Positions 11,991-31,672 of a DNA stretch of 64,000 nucleotides are shown piece by piece. Source of the stretch: an uncultured Acidimicrobiales bacterium (GTDB lineage Bacteria; Actinomycetota; Acidimicrobiia; Acidimicrobiales; SZUA-35); NCBI GenBank assembly GCA_963803875.1, contig CAWDOA010000014.1:48625-112624 (forward strand). Reading direction: 5' to 3'. The translations under genes and the position numbers were made by a program. Under the pieces are notes generated by a model. It worked only from the letters and a program-made list of their open reading frames with translations, made no database searches and was not told the origin of the DNA. Position 1 is the first letter of the stretch; the number at the start of each line of letters is the position of its first letter.

Positions 11991-13303
11991 CTACAGCTTG
12001 TCGTTGATCCAGGCGGCGACGCCCGGGAGCGGGATGCGAACCTGTTCCATTGTGTCACGGTCCCGGATCGTGACGGCCTGATCGTCGAGGGAATCGAAGT
12101 CGAACGTCACGCAGTACGGCGTACCGATTTCATCTTCACGGCGGTACCTCTTGCCAATGCCCTGAGTCTCATCGAAGTCGGTATTGAAGTGGCCCGCCAG
12201 GTCGGCGAAGAGTTTCTGCGACGGCTCCATCAGTTCAGGCTTCTTCGACAGCGGCAGCACCGCCGCCACGAACGGCGCTATGCGGGGATGCAGCTTCAAG
12301 ACGGTGCGTTCCTCATCGCCCACTGGCTCCACGTTGTAGGCATCCATGAGAAACGCCATCATGGCGCGGGTCGCCCCGGCTGCGGGCTCGATCACATGAG
12401 GGACGTAGCGGCGATTGTTGGCCTGATCAAAGAAGTCCAGCCTTGATCCGCTGTGTTCGGCGTGCTGGTTCAGGTCGAAGTCGCCCCGGTTGGCGATTCC
12501 CTCGAGTTCCCCCCAACCCCACGGAAAGAGGAACTCGACATCGCTTGTGGTCGATGAGTAGTGGCTCAGTTCGTCGTCATCGTGGGGGCGAAGCCGGAGG
12601 GAGTCGGCATTCATACCCAGGTCGATGTACCACTGCATGCGGGCGGCGCACCAGTACTCGTACCATTCTCGGCGTCCTCGGGCGGTACGAAGTACTCCAT
12701 CTCCATCTGTTCGAATTCCCGGGTCCGGAACACGAAATTGCCCGGCGTGATCTCGTTGCGGAAGCTCTTCCCGATCTGGGCGATACCGAACGGGGGCTTC
12801 TTCCTGGTCGTGTGTTGGACGTTGGAGAAGTTGATGAACATTCCCTGGGCGGTTTCGGGCCGCAGGTACGCGTCGGCACCCTTCCCGGCTACGGGACCGG
12901 CCGCGGTCTTGAACATGAGGTTGAAGTGTCGAGCCTCGGTGAAGGAATCGGCAGCTCCGCAGTTCGGACATAGGTTCGGGTCCTCCAGAGTGTCTTCCCG
13001 GAATCGCTGGCCGCATTCCTTGCAGTCCACCAGCGGATCGGTGAAGTTCGAGAGGTGACCGGAGGCCTCCCACACCTGTGGTGGTCCCAGAATCGAGGCG
13101 TCGAGTCCGACAACGTCGTGTCTCTGCTGCACCATCGAACGCCACCAGGCGTCCTTGACGTTGCGCAACATCAGCACCCCGACCGGCCCGTAGTCGTAGG
13201 TGGAACGGAAGCCACCGTAGATCTCCGCCGACGGGAACACGAAGCCTCGCCGTTTGCAGAGGTTCACAACCTGGTCGAACAGTTCCGGTCTGGGCTCAGC
13301 CAT
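11991..13303 (-). pseudogene. glyQS: glycine--tRNA ligase (dimeric class II GlyQS), interrupted by a 1-nt frameshift as assembled
   Basis: The N-terminal part ([30 protein letters not shown]) is in the frame of ORF 12611..13369. The rest ([18 protein letters not shown] ... RYRREDEIGTPYCVTFD) is in the frame of ORF 11991..13145. The switch lies at ~12660-12680 (GAC GCC GA|G AAT GG). Start ATG 13303 (MAEPRPELF). Confidence 0.85.
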
Positions 13304-13325
13304 GGCCGAAAGGCTAACGCCCACG

Positions 13326-14543
13326 ATGTCCGGCCCCATCCAAGCAATTCGACAGACAAACGGTAACAATAGAGGGGTGAATGACCTGTCGACATCGTCG
13401 CTGCTACCGCGTCGAATCGCAGCCTCAGTGGTGGATCTCGCGGTTGTCGGGTTGCTGTGGCTCCTGGTGCTGTATCGCTTGGCCGTACGGTTCGAAATCG
13501 CCCAACGAACCCCCGACGGAACACCGGTCTATTCCGACCTCCAGCGGGCCGAGTTGTCGAGCATCGCCGAGGGACTGAACTTCGGTCGGATCATCGGTGA
13601 CTTCTATTACTCGATCCACGGGAGAGGTTTGATCCTGGCAATGCTGTCGCTCCTGATCTTCTCCCTCATCGCCTGGGTGCTGGTTCCTGCAAACACCGGC
13701 TGGTCCGTAGGGCATCGGGCGTTCGGACTCATGGTCACCGACATGAAGGGACAGAAACCACCCCTCGACAGCTATCTGCGCCGCTACCTGGTGGGCATTG
13801 TTGACCTGTTCCCCTACATCATCCCGGGCCTTCTCGGATGGATCGTCGCCTCCCGCAACGAACACCACCAGCGTATGGGTGATCTCAGTGCCGACACAGT
13901 CGTGGTGAACGCCACCGCAGCCCTCGGCGACCTCCCACAGACCACCACCACGGTCATCCGCCCTGGCCAGACTGCCGAAGCTGAGGCGGAGGGCACGGGT
14001 CAACCGCCCGCACCGGCACACCCGGGGACAATGGTCGATGTCGAGGCGGCGCTGGCCGGTCACACCATGACCGAGGCGGCCGAAGATCTCTACCCGGTCC
14101 TGGATCTGGAGGACACCACACCACCGATCCCGACGGTCGAAGCTGGCAAGGCCATTCCGACTCCTGATTCTGGAGACAGCGAATTCGTCACATCGCTGAT
14201 CGACCATGAGGAATCGATCCTCGCCGATGAGGCCGAGGTCGATGAACTTCCCCAATCGACCTATGCCGAGAACTGGCATTTCCCTGAAGCCCAAGAGGCC
14301 CCCGTCTGGACACCTGAACCGAGCACCAACAACGGTCCCAAGGCAGCCCAGCACGACTCCAAACCGGCCAAGGCCGACCAACCGGCGCTCCAACCCGCTG
14401 CCAGTTCTGCAGCACAGATTGGTGACCCTGTCTGGAACGAACAGTGGCAAGCATGGCTTTATTGGGACCGCGACGGGAAGAAGTGGCTTCGTCATGATCC
14501 CGAGCGAGGTTGGCTCCCGATCGGCGACTCGCAGAAGGCCTAG
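13326..14543 (+). CDS. RDD-family membrane protein with long acidic/Pro-rich tail
   Basis: RDD-type N-terminal region ([22 protein letters not shown], 3-4 TM segments, RRYLVGIVD), then a low-complexity tail ending in the Trp-rich [27 protein letters not shown]. Start uncertain (ATG 13326 or GTG 13377). Confidence 0.7.
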
Positions 14544-23842: not shown

Positions 23843-24008
23843 GTGAATCTTGACTGGGGCGCTCGTAGTTCCTATGCCAACAGGCTACCACCGGGCTCGG
23901 TGTCGCCTCGGGTCGTTTGCCTCCCACCGGGTTAGGCTCGCCCTCACGTCTCGGGTTCGGCGTTGCGAACCTCCATTTGCCAGTCCACCGCTTTTGAATG
24001 GAGTTCCC

Positions 24009-25055
24009 ATGAACGCTTCCGATCCTGCGTTCGACGATGGCAGCGACACCAGCCGATCCTCCGATGGCGGCATCGAGCAGTACATGACCGTCGACGCGTT
24101 CGACGTCACGGTGACCGCCGGGTCTTCCGAGACCGCCATAGTTTCCAAGGACCACAGTGGTCCGCTCCCGGACCACGGACGCACGCGAAGTGAACATCGT
24201 GAGGCAATGGACCGAGAAAAGCAGTGGTTACGGAAGGCCGCGGGAATCCCGGGCGTGGTTCGATTGGTGGAACATCGTGACAACATCGTGACCGAGTTCG
24301 CAGGGAGTCGAACCCTCCGCTCTGAGTGCCCTGACCCTCACACAACGGCTCGAGCGCTGGCATCTGTTGCGGACACCATCGCCGAACTTGCCGGGCGGTG
24401 TCTGATTCACGGCTCCATCGCCCCTGAACATGTGATCCTGCCAACCGACGGCGCAGCAATCTTGTGCAGCCCGAACTCATCGGGCGACCCAATCGATGAC
24501 TTGGTCGCTCTTGGATTGTGCATAGAGTTTGCCAGCGAACAGTGGGAATCACCGCCGGACTCGATCACCCGATGGTGGTTATTGGCCAAGCAGCTGATGG
24601 ATCAGGACCCCACCATGGGACCGGAGAGGGCGGCGCAGAATCTACGGGATCTGACCGAAACCCAAACGGATCGTTCTCGTCGCCTACGGCTCGGTTCTCT
24701 GGTCACCGCGATAGGGGCAGGATTGGTGTTGGTCCTGGCGGCGGTCATGTTCACCTCAGGTTCCCGGCCCAGCGTCACCGGACCCGAAGTCCAGATCGAC
24801 GGCAGCGTGGTACGAGTGGGCAGCGAGGGCCAAGTGGCGCTCGTGCACCCAGGTGACAAGTGCATCGCCAGCCGGCTTTACCTTCTGGACCCGGAAACGT
24901 TCCAAATCTGGACCTTTGAGACCTTCGATACCGGCACTACCGGCACACCCGTGGCCATGGTGCCGGGGGCAACCGATCTGGGTATGGCCGAACTGAACGA
25001 CGGGTGTGTCTCAGTTGTCGCCCGCGGGCCGGCTGGAGAAGTTGCGCTGCCCTAG
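24009..25055 (+). CDS. membrane protein with degenerate protein-kinase-like N-terminal domain
   Basis: ATG 24009 preceded by GGAG. Kinase-like helix/hinge/catalytic-loop remnants (VVRLVE, TEFAGSRTL, LIHGSIAPEHVIL), but no Gly-rich loop, VAIK Lys, HRD Asp or DFG. One TM (LVTAIGAGLVLVLAAVMF), then a ~90-aa extracytoplasmic domain. Confidence 0.5.
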   Translation: MNASDPAFDDGSDTSRSSDGGIEQYMTVDAFDVTVTAGSSETAIVSKDHSGPLPDHGRTRSEHREAMDREKQWLRKAAGIPGVVRLVEHRDNIVTEFAGSRTLRSECPDPHTTARALASVADTIAELAGRCLIHGSIAPEHVILPTDGAAILCSPNSSGDPIDDLVALGLCIEFASEQWESPPDSITRWWLLAKQLMDQDPTMGPERAAQNLRDLTETQTDRSRRLRLGSLVTAIGAGLVLVLAAVMFTSGSRPSVTGPEVQIDGSVVRVGSEGQVALVHPGDKCIASRLYLLDPETFQIWTFETFDTGTTGTPVAMVPGATDLGMAELNDGCVSVVARGPAGEVALP

Positions 25056-25066
25056 CGGGACTCCAG

Positions 25067-25603
25067 CTACGCAGGAAGGTTGGTGAGGCCCAGATCGAGG
25101 AGGCGGTCCACGGCATGGTCCACCTCGACACCAAGGATGCAGGCCACCGCACGAAGGTCGTCTTGGCGGATGGTGAGCACACGTCCGTTGAAATCCTGAC
25201 GCTGTACTTGGATCATGCCGAGGTAGCGGGACAACATGTCGCCTTCCGGTCCGGCGAGTTCGTGGAGGTGGGTGAGATCCATGGTCACCCCGGCCCGGCC
25301 GGTCTTCTCGGTCAGATCGAGCACACTGGGCGTCACGCCCACCTTTGTGGCCCGTGGCAACAGCTGGTCGACGGGCACCTGATAGAACTCGGCGAGGCGC
25401 TGAAGTCGTGGAACCGAGATAGCTCGCTCGCCCCGTTCATAGGCTCCCAAGACCGACGCCTTGAACTCCTGGCTTGACTCGGACTCGACGTCTTGAAGCG
25501 AAAGGCGCTTCTGTCGACGGATCGCACGGAGGCGCTCGCCGACCCGGCGTCCATATTCAGAATCAGTACCTTCGGGGGTGTCGCTGTCGTGCATGTGCCT
25601 CAA
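25067..25603 (-). CDS. BldD-like XRE-family transcriptional regulator
   Basis: N-terminal HTH (EYGRRVGERLRAIRRQKRLSLQDVE...VLGAYERGERAISVPRLQRLAEFYQVPVDQLLP) and C-terminal IQVQRQDFNGRVLTIRQDDLR resemble Streptomyces BldD as recalled from memory. RXD-X8-RXXD is present at 25157-25201. Confidence 0.7.
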   Translation of the reverse strand: MRHMHDSDTPEGTDSEYGRRVGERLRAIRRQKRLSLQDVESESSQEFKASVLGAYERGERAISVPRLQRLAEFYQVPVDQLLPRATKVGVTPSVLDLTEKTGRAGVTMDLTHLHELAGPEGDMLSRYLGMIQVQRQDFNGRVLTIRQDDLRAVACILGVEVDHAVDRLLDLGLTNLPA

Positions 25604-28551: not shown

Positions 28552-28713
28552 AGTGCGGCCGATTTTACCGCCCACAGACCGCCGCGCCGTACCACACTGG
28601 GTCGGTCGAATCACCGGACGGGCGAAGGTACTCGAACTGTTAAGACCGCCAGTTCTTGTGTCGAAGCTAGAAAGGTGCCCGGAGACGGTCCAACCCAGAC
28701 TCCCGAAACGGAG

Positions 28714-29900
28714 ATGCGAGTCGGCTGGCAGGCCAAGCCCGGCCTGGCCCAGATCGTTCGCGTCCTCGTAACCATCGGTCCCGCGCTTTTCACCATAATT
28801 GCGTCCACTCTCTTGGCGAAAGCATTGCCTGCGAGCCAGGGCCGCGATCGAGTCTTGTGGTGGATCTTCCTTCTCTTTTCCTGTCTGGTCCTCCTCGCTG
28901 TCTTCGATCGTGCCTTCCGGCGCCTAGCACCGATCTCAACGCTGCTGAAGGTATCCCTCGTCTTTCCGGACAAGGCTCCCAGCCGATTTGCGGTGGCCCT
29001 CCGAGCCGGCAACACCCGATCGATCGCCAAAAGAATCGAATCGATTCGCGAATCCGGGGTAGCACTGGATCCCGAGGACAACTACGCCAGCCAGATGCTG
29101 GAGATGATCGCGCTTCTGGGCGAACACGACCGACTGACCCGTGGCCACTGCGAACGGGTTCGGGCCTACACCGACCTGTTGATCGATGAAATGGGAATCG
29201 CCGCCGAGGACGCCAACCAGCTGCGTTGGGCAGCGCTCCTACACGATCTCGGCAAGCTGATGGTTGCGGCGGAGATCCTGAACAAGGACGGGCGCCCGAC
29301 CGAGGAAGAATGGGAAGAACTCAAGACCCATCCCGCGGAGGGAGCGCGCCTTGCGCTGCCGCTGTCGGGCTTCCTCGGTGACTGGTGGAGAGTGATAGGT
29401 GAACACCACGAACGCTGGGATGGGGGCGGGTACCCCTCGGGTCTGGCGGGAACCGAAATCCATCTTGGCGCCCGCATGGTCGCTGTCGCAGACACCTTCG
29501 ACGTGATCACCTCTGCCCGGTCGTACAAGACTCCGATCGAGGCGGACAAAGCTCGGGCCGAAATTGCTCGATGCTCGGGTGGACAATTCGACCCTCAGGT
29601 CGTTCGTGCTTTTCTGTCGATCGGGATCTCCAAACTTCGTTTCATCGTCGGCCCGCTGGCGTGGCTGTCCGGTTCGGCCAGTCTGTCCGGTGCCAGTACC
29701 GTGGTCCCGGCCGGAAGTGCGATCGCTACCGCCGCCGCCACCCTGGGAGCCGTTGTTGCGGTCGCAACGCCCGCAATCGTGGAGGACATCGACGTCGTTG
29801 CACCGCCGATCGAAGCTCCATTCGTGCAACCGTTCGAATCAACAACAACAACGATCGCTTCATCCACCACAACAGGTCCTGCTGGCAACAACCACGACGT
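28714..29900 (+). CDS. membrane-bound HD-GYP domain protein (putative c-di-GMP phosphodiesterase), 5' segment of a frame-interrupted gene
   Basis: Two N-terminal TM segments, then an HD-GYP domain (HCERV, LLHDLGK, HHERWDGGGYP at 29404-29436) and a hydrophobic stretch (~29610-29790). Beyond ~29890 this frame becomes Arg/His-rich nonsense. Confidence 0.8.
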
Positions 29901-31672
29901 TGGCCCTCGGTTCGTCAACGTCCTCGCTTCCAACCGCCACTTCAACATCGGCGAACACACCAACATCGACAAGCACACCAACATCGACGAGCACACCGAC
30001 GTCTGGTGTCACGTCGACAACGGTCCCGACAACACCGCCTCCAACGACAGCCGCCCCTTCCACCACCGCACCACCGGCGCCACCAAGCGCAAACGTCGAC
30101 TTCGCCACGTTGTCCGAAGGCTCTGCGCAGACAGTCGACGTGCTCGCCAACGACGATTCCGGTCTCACATTGACCTCGGTGAGCGGCGGATCGCATGCCG
30201 CCAGCATCGTCATCAGCGGCGGCAAGGTCATCTACACCCACGACGGCTCGGAGAGCCTGAGCGATACCTTCACCTACACCGCAATCAACGGTTCAGGAAC
30301 TTCGGTTTCCCAGGTGGTCGAAATCACAGTGTCGCCGCAGAACGACACGCCGACACTGTCGTTTGACCCACAGACGGTTTACGCAGACGCCACCGCCCTG
30401 GATTTCGCTGTGGTGCTCGTGGCAAACGATCCCGATGACAGCAGCCATTCCTGGTCCATCGTCTCGTCCACCAATCCGGACTTCGTACTCTCGGGTTCCA
30501 CGCTCAGACTGACAGACTGGACCAACCTGACCGCAGGTGACACCGAATCGGTCACCATCCGGGCCTACGACGGCTCGGTCTACTCATCCCCCGCCACCAT
30601 GACCGTGACGGTGGAGGCACCCAGTACAGCCGGGCTGCTGATCAGTCAGTTCTCCAGCGATGGCTCGTACTACGGTGAGGACTTCGTGGAGATCTACAAC
30701 TCCAGCACCGAGCCGCGATCGGTTGGGGCACTTTCCCTTCGCATCACCGGCGAGCGCGATGAACTCGAGGACAGCCGGCTCAGTCGGACGTCGTTGGGTG
30801 ACCGTGTGATTCCCGCCGGCGGGTTCCTGCTCCTCGGCAAGAACCTGGGCGATGTGGGCGGCAAGGTCGACATCGCCTTCGGCCACAACCTACCGGCAAC
30901 AGTCGGTCTGGAAATCTTGGCCCCCGACCGCACCGTCATCGACGCGGTGGGAACCCGAGCCGCCCCTGAAGCTCCCGGTGGCAAGTCGAACCGCAGTTAT
31001 GCCTTGGAAGGGGTGGGCCTGCCCCCGCTCGACAAAGACAACACGGCTCATCCGCAGAGTTATGTCCGCCGGCATGGCAACGCCGGGTCGTGCGTCGACA
31101 CCCAGAACAACTCAGCGGATTTCGTGCGACACTTCACCCCGGCCACCGTCAACCCTCGGCATGAGGGCGACACTGCACCGTGCGGCGGACCGGTGCCGTT
31201 CGCCGGCACGTCGGGCTCGTTCGTGATAAGCGAGTTCAGGACCGACGGTCCCGGGGCCGGAGACAACGACTTCATCGAGATCATGAACCCGACCAACGCT
31301 CCGCTGCCGCTCGACGGTTTCACCCTCGACGGAGACTCCCTTTCATTCAACTTCCCCAACGTCACACTCCAGCCCGGTGAGCACTTCCTCGTGACCGCTG
31401 ACGGCTATGCGATCCTGGGCGACGGCCGGATGTCCGGTTCCCCCAGGAACGGTGGTTGGATCGAACTACTGGACGGAGCCGGCCAACGCCACGACTACGT
31501 TGACATCGGAAACAACGTCGACGAACTTCCCAAGCTGACCCGACGGGTTGAAAACAGCTGGGGCCGCAAATACGGATGCCAGTTCACCGGCATCATGCAA
31601 TTCGGCGACTGGCAGCACCTCTTCATCCAAACCCCCCAGGGTCGCGGCGACATCACGGCCTGCCCGTCCTAG
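29880..31672 (+). CDS. extracellular module: Ser/Thr/Pro linker, two cadherin-like Ig domains, two lamin-tail domains (3' segment, no own start)
   Basis: Frame of ORF 29564..31672. S/T/P linker (~29900-30090). Cadherin-like repeats (VDVLANDDSG...TFTYTAINGSG...VSPQNDTPT; VANDPDDSSHSW...VTIRAYDG). LTD-like units (LLISQFSSDG...DFVEIYNSS at ~30625-30960; FVISEFRTDGPGAGDNDFIEIMNPT at ~31210-31510). The upstream part of this frame is non-coding-like. Confidence 0.65.

Follow-up and report, generated by a model that had tools for sequence, protein, structure and literature searches.

In the passages of the 2021 census of Galperin and Chou considered here, the HD-GYP domain typically lies at the C-terminus of a protein, behind N-terminal sensors, and no HD-GYP protein with an extracytoplasmic sensor is given as characterised; nor do those passages describe a C-terminal ectodomain on an HD-GYP protein, and the main text of the census has no word that begins with 'Actinobacteria', 'Actinomyc' or 'Acidimicrob'. 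Here we describe a gene at positions 28714 to 31672 (+ strand) of a 64,000-nucleotide stretch of DNA from an uncultured Acidimicrobiales bacterium (assembly GCA_963803875.1, contig CAWDOA010000014.1, positions 48,625 to 112,624; hereafter the window), which encodes an HD-GYP enzyme together with a module of cadherin-like immunoglobulin (Ig) repeats and lamin tail domain (LTD)-like units. The enzyme is familiar; its inverted, receptor-like layout with an LTD/cadherin ectodomain is not described in the literature searched here. Our full-text searches found nothing that joins HD-GYP with 'lamin tail domain', or cyclic di-GMP (c-di-GMP) with 'lamin tail', and none of the papers holding both HD-GYP and cadherin appears relevant by title and abstract. 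The first-pass annotation, made from the letters of the window alone, had known of no such architecture, in agreement with these searches and with the census passages.

The window protein shares its catalytic domain, with all H/HD/H/HH/D ligands and the GYP motif, with RpfG, PmGH (PDB 4MCW), PA4781 (4R8Z) and V-cGAP3 (5Z7C). In known HD-GYP proteins, as the census describes them, this domain stands at the C-terminus, behind N-terminal sensors such as REC, GAF, PAS, dCache, PBPb, CHASE2 or MASE9-11. The window protein has the opposite order, with its HD-GYP domain ahead of a putative sensor that lies C-terminal to it, past a transmembrane (TM) segment. HdgA and HdgB of Streptomyces are, like it, actinobacterial membrane-bound HD-GYP proteins; in the descriptions drawn on here they have a MASE9 6TM-HD-GYP arrangement, with an N-terminal polytopic sensor and no ectodomain, and neither is among the best matches listed for the orthologue P0002 or for the N-terminal part of the window protein.

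The layout may also be likened to that of the actinobacterial receptor Ser/Thr kinases, which have variable, swappable ectodomains: PknB is a kinase-TM-PASTA protein and PknD a kinase-TM-beta-propeller protein. These proteins from the same phylum likewise combine a cytoplasmic catalytic domain, a single TM segment and a C-terminal extracellular module. The window protein differs in that it is predicted to hydrolyse a cyclic dinucleotide, with no phosphorylation chemistry, and in that it adds an N-terminal TM hairpin, so that its catalytic domain would be tethered to the membrane at both ends.

Links between c-di-GMP and adhesion are found in DvhD, an HD-GYP protein that acts as a c-di-GMP-dependent switch governing adhesin processing (PMC13090378), and in LapD; the window protein would likewise be a membrane protein tying c-di-GMP to cell-surface adhesion, as DvhD does, via an HD-GYP domain. 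DvhD and LapD carry an N-terminal periplasmic domain between two TM segments and act on separate adhesins through a protease. In contrast, the window protein has covalently fused adhesin-like repeats and intact catalytic residues, the loop between its first two TM segments is just ~6-10 amino acids (aa) long, and its neighbours include no LapG-like protease.

The components of the C-terminal module also have described relatives. The LTD (PF00932) occurs in an extracytoplasmic context in the ExeM nuclease of Shewanella, where it is joined to nuclease domains behind an N-terminal signal peptide, and in multi-LTD proteins of Chloroflexota; the LTD of ExeM is dispensable in vivo and modulates activity in vitro only. 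Unlike ExeM, the window protein has two Cys-paired LTDs, which appear to sit on top of a cadherin-like stalk whose anchor is an HD-GYP enzyme. The 'tandem-95' adhesins are built from the same Big_9/cadherin-like repeat families, with VDVLANDD and NDxP motifs and structures like those of cadherin and RTX-adhesin extenders; they are very large proteins, either secreted or anchored to the cell wall, and contain no signalling enzyme, whereas the window protein has just two repeats (up to many in its relatives), tethered to a phosphodiesterase.

Reading frames, orthologues and domains

Judged from its sequence and that of its orthologues, the stretch from 28714 to 31672 is one gene for both parts. 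We searched the products of both frames in the list of open reading frames (ORFs) with Pfam profiles, placed the junction between them by tblastn and took hydropathy as the Kyte-Doolittle (KD) mean over 19 residues. Two ORFs overlap on the + strand, one in frame 1 that runs to 30366 and one in frame 2 from 29564 to 31672. The ATG at 28714 is the biologically sensible start of frame 1, and the protein begins there with MRVGWQAKPG, a start common to the window gene, P0002 and a second orthologue, P0003. When P0003 is compared with the window by tblastn, its aa 1-386 match frame 1 collinearly up to 29871, at 89% identity, and its aa 387-973 match frame 2 from 29876, a gapless hand-over from one frame to the other. 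A DNA alignment against the P0003 locus (L037) shows a single additional base within ACAACAGGTCC. By these two comparisons the frameshift site lies at 29872-29876 (+ strand), a 1-nt insertion inside a Thr-rich linker that takes frame 1 into frame 2; the first-pass annotation had put the switch at about 29870-29900. With one base removed, a 985-aa ORF with zero internal stops results. Its N-terminal part (28714-29874, frame 1, aa 1-387) holds two TM segments, the HD-GYP domain, a third hydrophobic segment (TM3) and the start of the linker, and its C-terminal part (29876-31672, frame 2) holds the Ser/Thr/Pro (S/T/P)-rich linker, then a pair of Ig repeats of the Big_9/cadherin-like kind and, after these, a pair of units that resemble lamin tails.

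The 3′ part has neither a start codon nor a signal peptide of its own, as had been noticed at the outset, and the window's own deposited call for it (P0001, 452 aa) begins only at an internal GTG within the first Ig repeat. The N-terminal half is represented by another deposited call of 550 aa (P0039, from the N-terminal protein search). Since P0001 and P0039 are separate calls, the gene is split in the deposited annotation.

Both parts occur together in single proteins elsewhere. A search with the C-terminal part gave six proteins that have HD_5 and LTD together, with Big_9 too in five of them: P0002 (963 aa, 82% identity over the C-terminal module, locus L001), P0003 (973 aa, 78% over the same module), P0004 (1018 aa), P0005 (833 aa, without Big_9 repeats, and named 'HD domain-containing protein [Acidimicrobiales bacterium]' at NCBI), P0006 and P0013. 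The loci of P0002 and P0003 each hold a single intact ORF in the same synteny as the window, the common neighbours being phoH, a 401-aa ORF, a BldD-like gene, rsmE, and dnaJ and hrcA (upstream of the HD-GYP gene on the opposite strand), with a photolyase gene downstream. We also scanned the LTD-LTD module against 185,579 species-representative genomes, which yielded 13 loci in metagenome-assembled genomes (MAGs) of Acidimicrobiia/Nitriliruptoria; at all nine MAG loci that have an uncut upstream region, the LTD pair shares an open frame with an HHExxDGxGYP motif, in products of 833 to ~2600 aa. The proposal that a single polypeptide is cut here by one indel is supported by these six relatives, two intact loci and nine in-frame loci, and the orthologues have the same single-ORF architecture and not that of two separate genes.

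The catalytic domain matches Pfam HD_5 at 29110-29601 (+ strand, aa 133-296; 1.4e-30, 106.7 bits, cut-off 27.2), and the frame-1 product also matches Pfam HD (59.3 bits, cut-off 22). The signature HHERWDGGGYP is found by sequence match at 29404-29436 (+ strand). Residues H145, H177-D178, H231-H232, D236, G237, G239-Y240-P241 and D260 are all present and do not vary among 126 relatives; H206 is present too, and at least 90% of the relatives keep it. This conservation argues for a working hydrolase. The domain thus looks catalytically complete, and the protein is probably a membrane enzyme that degrades c-di-GMP. Its closest solved relatives in the PDB are V-cGAP3 (5z7c, 1e-35), PmGH (4mcw, 3e-27) and PA4781 (4r8z). 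Ahead of the domain are two hydrophobic helices: TM helix 1 (28738-28824, + strand, aa 9-37), an AlphaFold helix with a predicted local distance difference test score (pLDDT) >90 and a KD of 2.13 over aa 17-35, kept in all orthologues, and TM helix 2 (28843-28920, + strand, aa 44-69), also an AlphaFold helix, with a KD of 2.45, after which come conserved DRxFRRLAP and LVFPDxAPSRF motifs. F84, P85, P89 and R91, after TM2, are invariant in the 126 family members. An AlphaFold model of aa 1-387, made with the 126-sequence alignment (mean pLDDT 81.6), gives the TM1 and TM2 helices and the HD-GYP fold with confidence. Thus the HD_5 match and the KD peaks bear out the early description of frame 1 as two TM segments, an HD-GYP domain and a further hydrophobic stretch.

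The C-terminal part begins with the S/T/P-rich, low-complexity linker (29876-30079, + strand, frame 2), for which AlphaFold gives pLDDT <50, consistent with disorder, and whose length differs among orthologues. An 18-nt tandem repeat of 3.1 copies at 29943-29997 (CAACATCGACGAGCACAC) encodes TPTSTS units of the linker. The Thr, Pro and Ser codons of the linker are A-ending in the true frame, and G+C content at third codon positions (GC3) at 29943-29997 is 0.60, as against 0.82 in the wrong frame; because of this, gene finders that rely on codon bias would be misled there. A GC3 frame plot, tried for locating the switch, was uninformative in the linker, and the junction was fixed by tblastn instead.

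Ig repeat 1 (30080-30328, + strand; Big_9 at aa 69-151 of the C-part) is modelled as a beta-sandwich at pLDDT about 90, and its top Foldseek matches are cadherin and RTX-adhesin (extender) repeats; Ig repeat 2 (30329-30616, + strand), the second Big_9 stretch and Cadherin_4-like, has AlphaFold strands at pLDDT 76-92. Big_9 (PF17963) is matched at 2.8e-10 and 49.7 bits in two stretches (cut-off 23.6), Cadherin_4 (PF17803) at 30 bits (cut-off 25.1) and Cadherin_3 (PF16184) at 24.3-24.6 bits, just under its cut-off of 25.5. The LTD profile gives 1.5e-17 and 64.4 bits for the whole C-part (cut-off 34.3). Of the two LTD-like units, unit 2 (DFIEIMNPT; 31211-31672, + strand) reaches 47.6 bits alone, has a conserved Cys pair and ends in ...ACPS and the stop codon; unit 1 (DFVEIYNSS; 30617-31183, + strand), with conserved Cys codons at 31091-31093 and 31181-31183, stays under the cut-off alone (19.4 bits, E=0.0014). 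The units match each other in BLASTP (E=4e-5) and share the LTD N-terminal signature, AlphaFold gives unit 1 beta-sandwich strands at pLDDT 55-80, and the relatives P0041, P0042, P0044 and P0045 have two LTD stretches each. The Cys pairs C178 + C208 (unit 1, checked in six orthologues) and C340 + C368 (unit 2) are invariant. The LTD pair had no significant match when its sequence was searched against the PDB. Profiles and models together therefore uphold the S/T/P linker, the two cadherin-like repeats and the two LTD-like units read from the letters: HD_5, LTD and Big_9 score above their cut-offs, with Cadherin_3 just short and unit 1 below threshold by itself.

Some 3 kb from the HD-GYP gene is a BldD-like regulator gene (25067-25603, − strand; HTH_3 and BldD-like_C, 5e-18), syntenic in L001 and L037 with 95% identity. 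Its product carries an RQD-x8-RQDD motif, which we take to match the c-di-GMP-binding signature reportedly present in Streptomyces BldD, and because of this motif c-di-GMP signalling in the host organism is plausible. A search of the window for GGDEF genes gave none. The 401-aa ORF (23850-25055, + strand) lies between phoH and the BldD-like gene, has no Pfam match and occupies the same position in L001 and L037 (70-79% identity). As to conserved operon partners, a search showed the hrcA/dnaJ/photolyase arrangement only in the two closest orthologues and not in L003-L014. The region between hrcA and the HD-GYP gene (28615-28713) is 99 bp long and divergent, and holds zero matches to the CIRCE operator allowing 3 mismatches. 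The sole Shine-Dalgarno-like GGAG (28709-28712) directly adjoins the ATG of the HD-GYP gene, and so translation initiation may be atypical.

A family with exchangeable C-terminal modules

On comparison with its relatives, the window protein is not unique in its architecture: it belongs to a large family in Actinomycetota in which the core stays the same and the module C-terminal to it is exchanged. We searched for this family with P0002 and with the N-terminal part in a representative library of 1.84 billion proteins, and considered the best 150 clusters (50% identity), 117 of which carry the strict HD-GYP motif. In about 90 of these 150 clusters a 2TM-HD-GYP-TM core is followed by a variable C-terminus: the relatives align, at their own N-terminus, to aa ~4-440 of the query and then extend for 150-2200 residues. 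The extensions include Big_9, Cadherin_4 and Cadherin_5 (with as many as five Big_9 stretches among the scanned proteins), LTD pairs, pentapeptide repeats, Lectin_C (C-type lectin) and long low-complexity tails. Beyond the catalytic residues, two motifs of the core are conserved: the juxtamembrane LVFPDxAPSRF, which follows TM2, and a GP that precedes TM3. In P0285 (from the cultured Actinotalea sp. K2), P0195, P0096, P0233 and P0243, pentapeptide or C-type lectin modules replace Ig/LTD on the same core, those of P0285 being pentapeptide repeats.

The named sources are all Actinomycetota, mostly Acidimicrobiia, and comprise Acidimicrobiales, Ilumatobacteraceae, Kineosporiaceae, Actinotalea and Nitriliruptoria. 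Thousands of such proteins are already in the databases, generically named, and no NCBIfam model is specific to 2TM-HD-GYP-TM proteins.

Topology, mechanism and rival explanations

A mean KD above 1.6 is reached in only three segments of the repaired protein, aa 17-35, 47-65 and ~337-355, and these recur in every orthologue. The third of them (KD 1.88 at aa 337-355, ~29722-29778) lies in the segment proposed as TM3 or reverse signal-anchor (29716-29784, + strand, aa ~335-357), within a 47-aa uncharged stretch (29644-29784). Of the 117 strict-motif proteins, about 83 have their first hydrophobic peak 92-123 aa past the HHE motif, and peak KD is at least 1.4 in 109 of 125 proteins of the 126-relative alignment. 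Among the 126 relatives, mean net charge around TM3 is +0.32 before the segment and -0.95 after it, and the median length of the longest run without charged residues is 35 aa there, as against 11 aa in the catalytic domain. The C-terminal module is probably outside the cell after TM3: the acidic residues that follow TM3, the S/T/P linker, the adhesin-like all-beta domains and the one Cys pair per LTD all support this location, as does the nature of the alternative C-terminal modules in relatives.

We lean towards reading the gene as that of a single ~985-aa receptor-type HD-GYP cyclic-dinucleotide phosphodiesterase, with its Ig/LTD module outside the cell and under outside-in control, whose split in the assembly is an error. 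In such a receptor, the TM1-TM2 hairpin and TM3 would bracket the cytoplasmic HD-GYP domain, tethering both its ends to the membrane, and TM3, as a reverse signal-anchor, would put the remaining ~600 aa outside the cell. This ectodomain would consist of the S/T/P linker, the two Ca-cadherin-like Ig repeats as a stalk and the two LTD units as a head, whose binding partner might be a surface, another cell, or a ligand that is extracellular or surface-associated. Binding could then alter the oligomeric state or the position of TM3; this change would be passed to the HD-GYP domain, and c-di-GMP hydrolysis would change with it. Outside-in control seems to us the most economical reading. As no ligand is known for bacterial LTDs, what the ectodomain binds and which way the signal runs are purely our inference, and sensing of extracellular DNA or matrix by the ectodomain is speculation.

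Several observations weigh against this reading, the lack of a known LTD ligand among them. AlphaFold leaves aa 322-376 at pLDDT <50 with no helix, so that TM3, which is Ala/Gly/Thr-rich and of only moderate hydrophobicity, is unresolved in the model and is inferred from hydropathy, not confirmed; the display outside the cell after a TM pass that the first-pass annotation had proposed thus has hydropathy, charge bias and adhesin-like domains on its side and this part of the model against it. The best PDB relative, V-cGAP3, is an enzyme specific for 3′3′-cyclic GMP-AMP (cGAMP). Further, Glu185 of PmGH reportedly binds a third metal in the structure of that enzyme, and the position in the window protein that is presumably equivalent is Leu, which suggests a binuclear metal site. 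As to the split, the genes within ±10 kb of the insertion are intact, so that errors do not pervade the assembly; the additional base also lies outside any long homopolymer.

It is nevertheless likely that the one-nucleotide insertion is a sequencing or assembly error and not biology. The glycyl-tRNA synthetase gene glyQS (window 11991-13369, − strand), observed in one copy in the window, is likewise divided over two frames, with the break at ~12668-12672: its upstream (N) half matches residues 24-245 of GlyRS 8sld and its downstream (C) half residues 247-474, with a junction of ...PPEDAE / EWYEYW... at which one base is missing and one more needed. Since glyQS, normally an essential gene, is frameshifted in the same 64 kb, an assembly indel is the most likely cause of the split in our gene, neither part of which shows further decay. 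Should the frameshift instead be real, which we consider unlikely, the gene would be a recent pseudogene or truncation in the host organism, and what is left would be P0039, a 2TM-HD-GYP-TM protein of 550 aa whose tail is out of frame, plus an LTD fragment that is not exported and probably not even translated. The deposited split itself, the intact neighbours and the absence of a long homopolymer are in keeping with such a loss, and repeated loss of the ectodomain would explain why P0013 too is broken inside its first LTD; but the glyQS case points to assembly indels, the downstream frame continues for 1.8 kb without stops or indels and is 73-77% identical to orthologues, and the syntenic orthologues are both intact. 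To programmed +1 ribosomal frameshifting or transcriptional slippage we give practically no credence: the frames do abut in a repetitive Thr-codon tract, with no stop between, but we reject it because every orthologue is in frame at the junction, and the site has neither a slippery homopolymer nor a known +1 signal, in a linker whose sequence is not conserved. 

Of the alternatives that concern the protein, one holds that the hydrophobic segment is non-spanning or a hairpin and that the Ig/LTD module is cytoplasmic. The want of a confident helix at aa 322-376, an uncharged stretch long enough for a hairpin and the pentapeptide repeats of some family members, which are often cytoplasmic, would suit this, but we think it improbable: the first half of the uncharged stretch has a KD of ~1.1 and the second 1.9, the flank after TM3 is acidic, and Big_9, cadherin, LTD and C-type lectin domains, S/T/P linkers and conserved Cys pairs typify secreted proteins. 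That the physiological substrate is 3′3′-cGAMP or another cyclic dinucleotide rather than c-di-GMP, as the ranking of V-cGAP3 ahead of PmGH might indicate, is doubtful, as specificity cannot be read from similarity scores between HD-GYP domains and the gene 3 kb off is that of a BldD-like c-di-GMP effector whose binding motif is intact; no cGAS/DncV-like gene turned up either, none having been searched for. Lastly, signalling may run inside-out, the HD-GYP domain being mainly a c-di-GMP-binding switch in the manner of DvhD/LapD that steers its own extracellular adhesin module by way of its conformation, clustering or retention. Adhesiveness would then depend on c-di-GMP in the cytoplasm, and c-di-GMP would not depend on the ectodomain. 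The HD-GYP switch of DvhD is a precedent (PMC13090378), the ectodomain is made of adhesin-type repeats, and PDB chains 9rbz and 9rc0 ('HD domain/sensory box protein'), which may be the DvhD structures, are detectable relatives. We regard this as rather unlikely, since the (near-)invariant catalytic residues of the 126 members, H206 included at its at least 90%, suggest selection for hydrolysis and not for binding only, and since conformational control would be poorly relayed to a distal head domain by only one TM segment (TM3) and a linker of ~70 disordered residues.

Breaks of a kind like that in the window are present in related MAGs as well. Locus L004 (6001-7024, MAG MFD03551.bin.1.131) has a frameshift inside LTD1, with P0013 ending out of frame, and phoH of L001 is frameshifted at ~775-1125, where its two tblastn pieces overlap. 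Two heuristic scans of the window for additional frameshifts were unreliable, the glyQS case coming from manual follow-up of the first; an apparent frameshift at a dnaG/rpoD overlap was rejected as merely an upstream ORF extension.

Possible receptor-type HD-GYP proteins in Actinomycetota

Where the inputs to HD-GYP proteins are known, they come via N-terminal sensors, and the window gene and its relatives invert this layout, with adhesin-type modules joined straight to the enzyme. Split calls such as P0039 and P0001 conceal the architecture in MAG annotations. If the ectodomain of the proposed outside-in receptor regulates activity, this would make a direct physical link from cell-surface contact to c-di-GMP levels, in a phylum in which c-di-GMP governs development through BldD and, in this window, with a BldD-like gene close by. 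Tentatively, we suggest that Actinomycetota, and especially the abundant and largely uncultured Acidimicrobiia, may have a large, undescribed class of receptor-type HD-GYP proteins in which interchangeable, extracellular adhesin- or lectin-like modules, from Big_9/cadherin stalks and LTD heads to C-type lectin and pentapeptide domains, directly gate c-di-GMP hydrolysis on contact with surfaces, matrix or other cells. If this were true, c-di-GMP signalling in monoderm bacteria would have an input from contact or mechanical sensing, and bacterial LTDs would gain a first defined role, as ligand-binding sensor heads.

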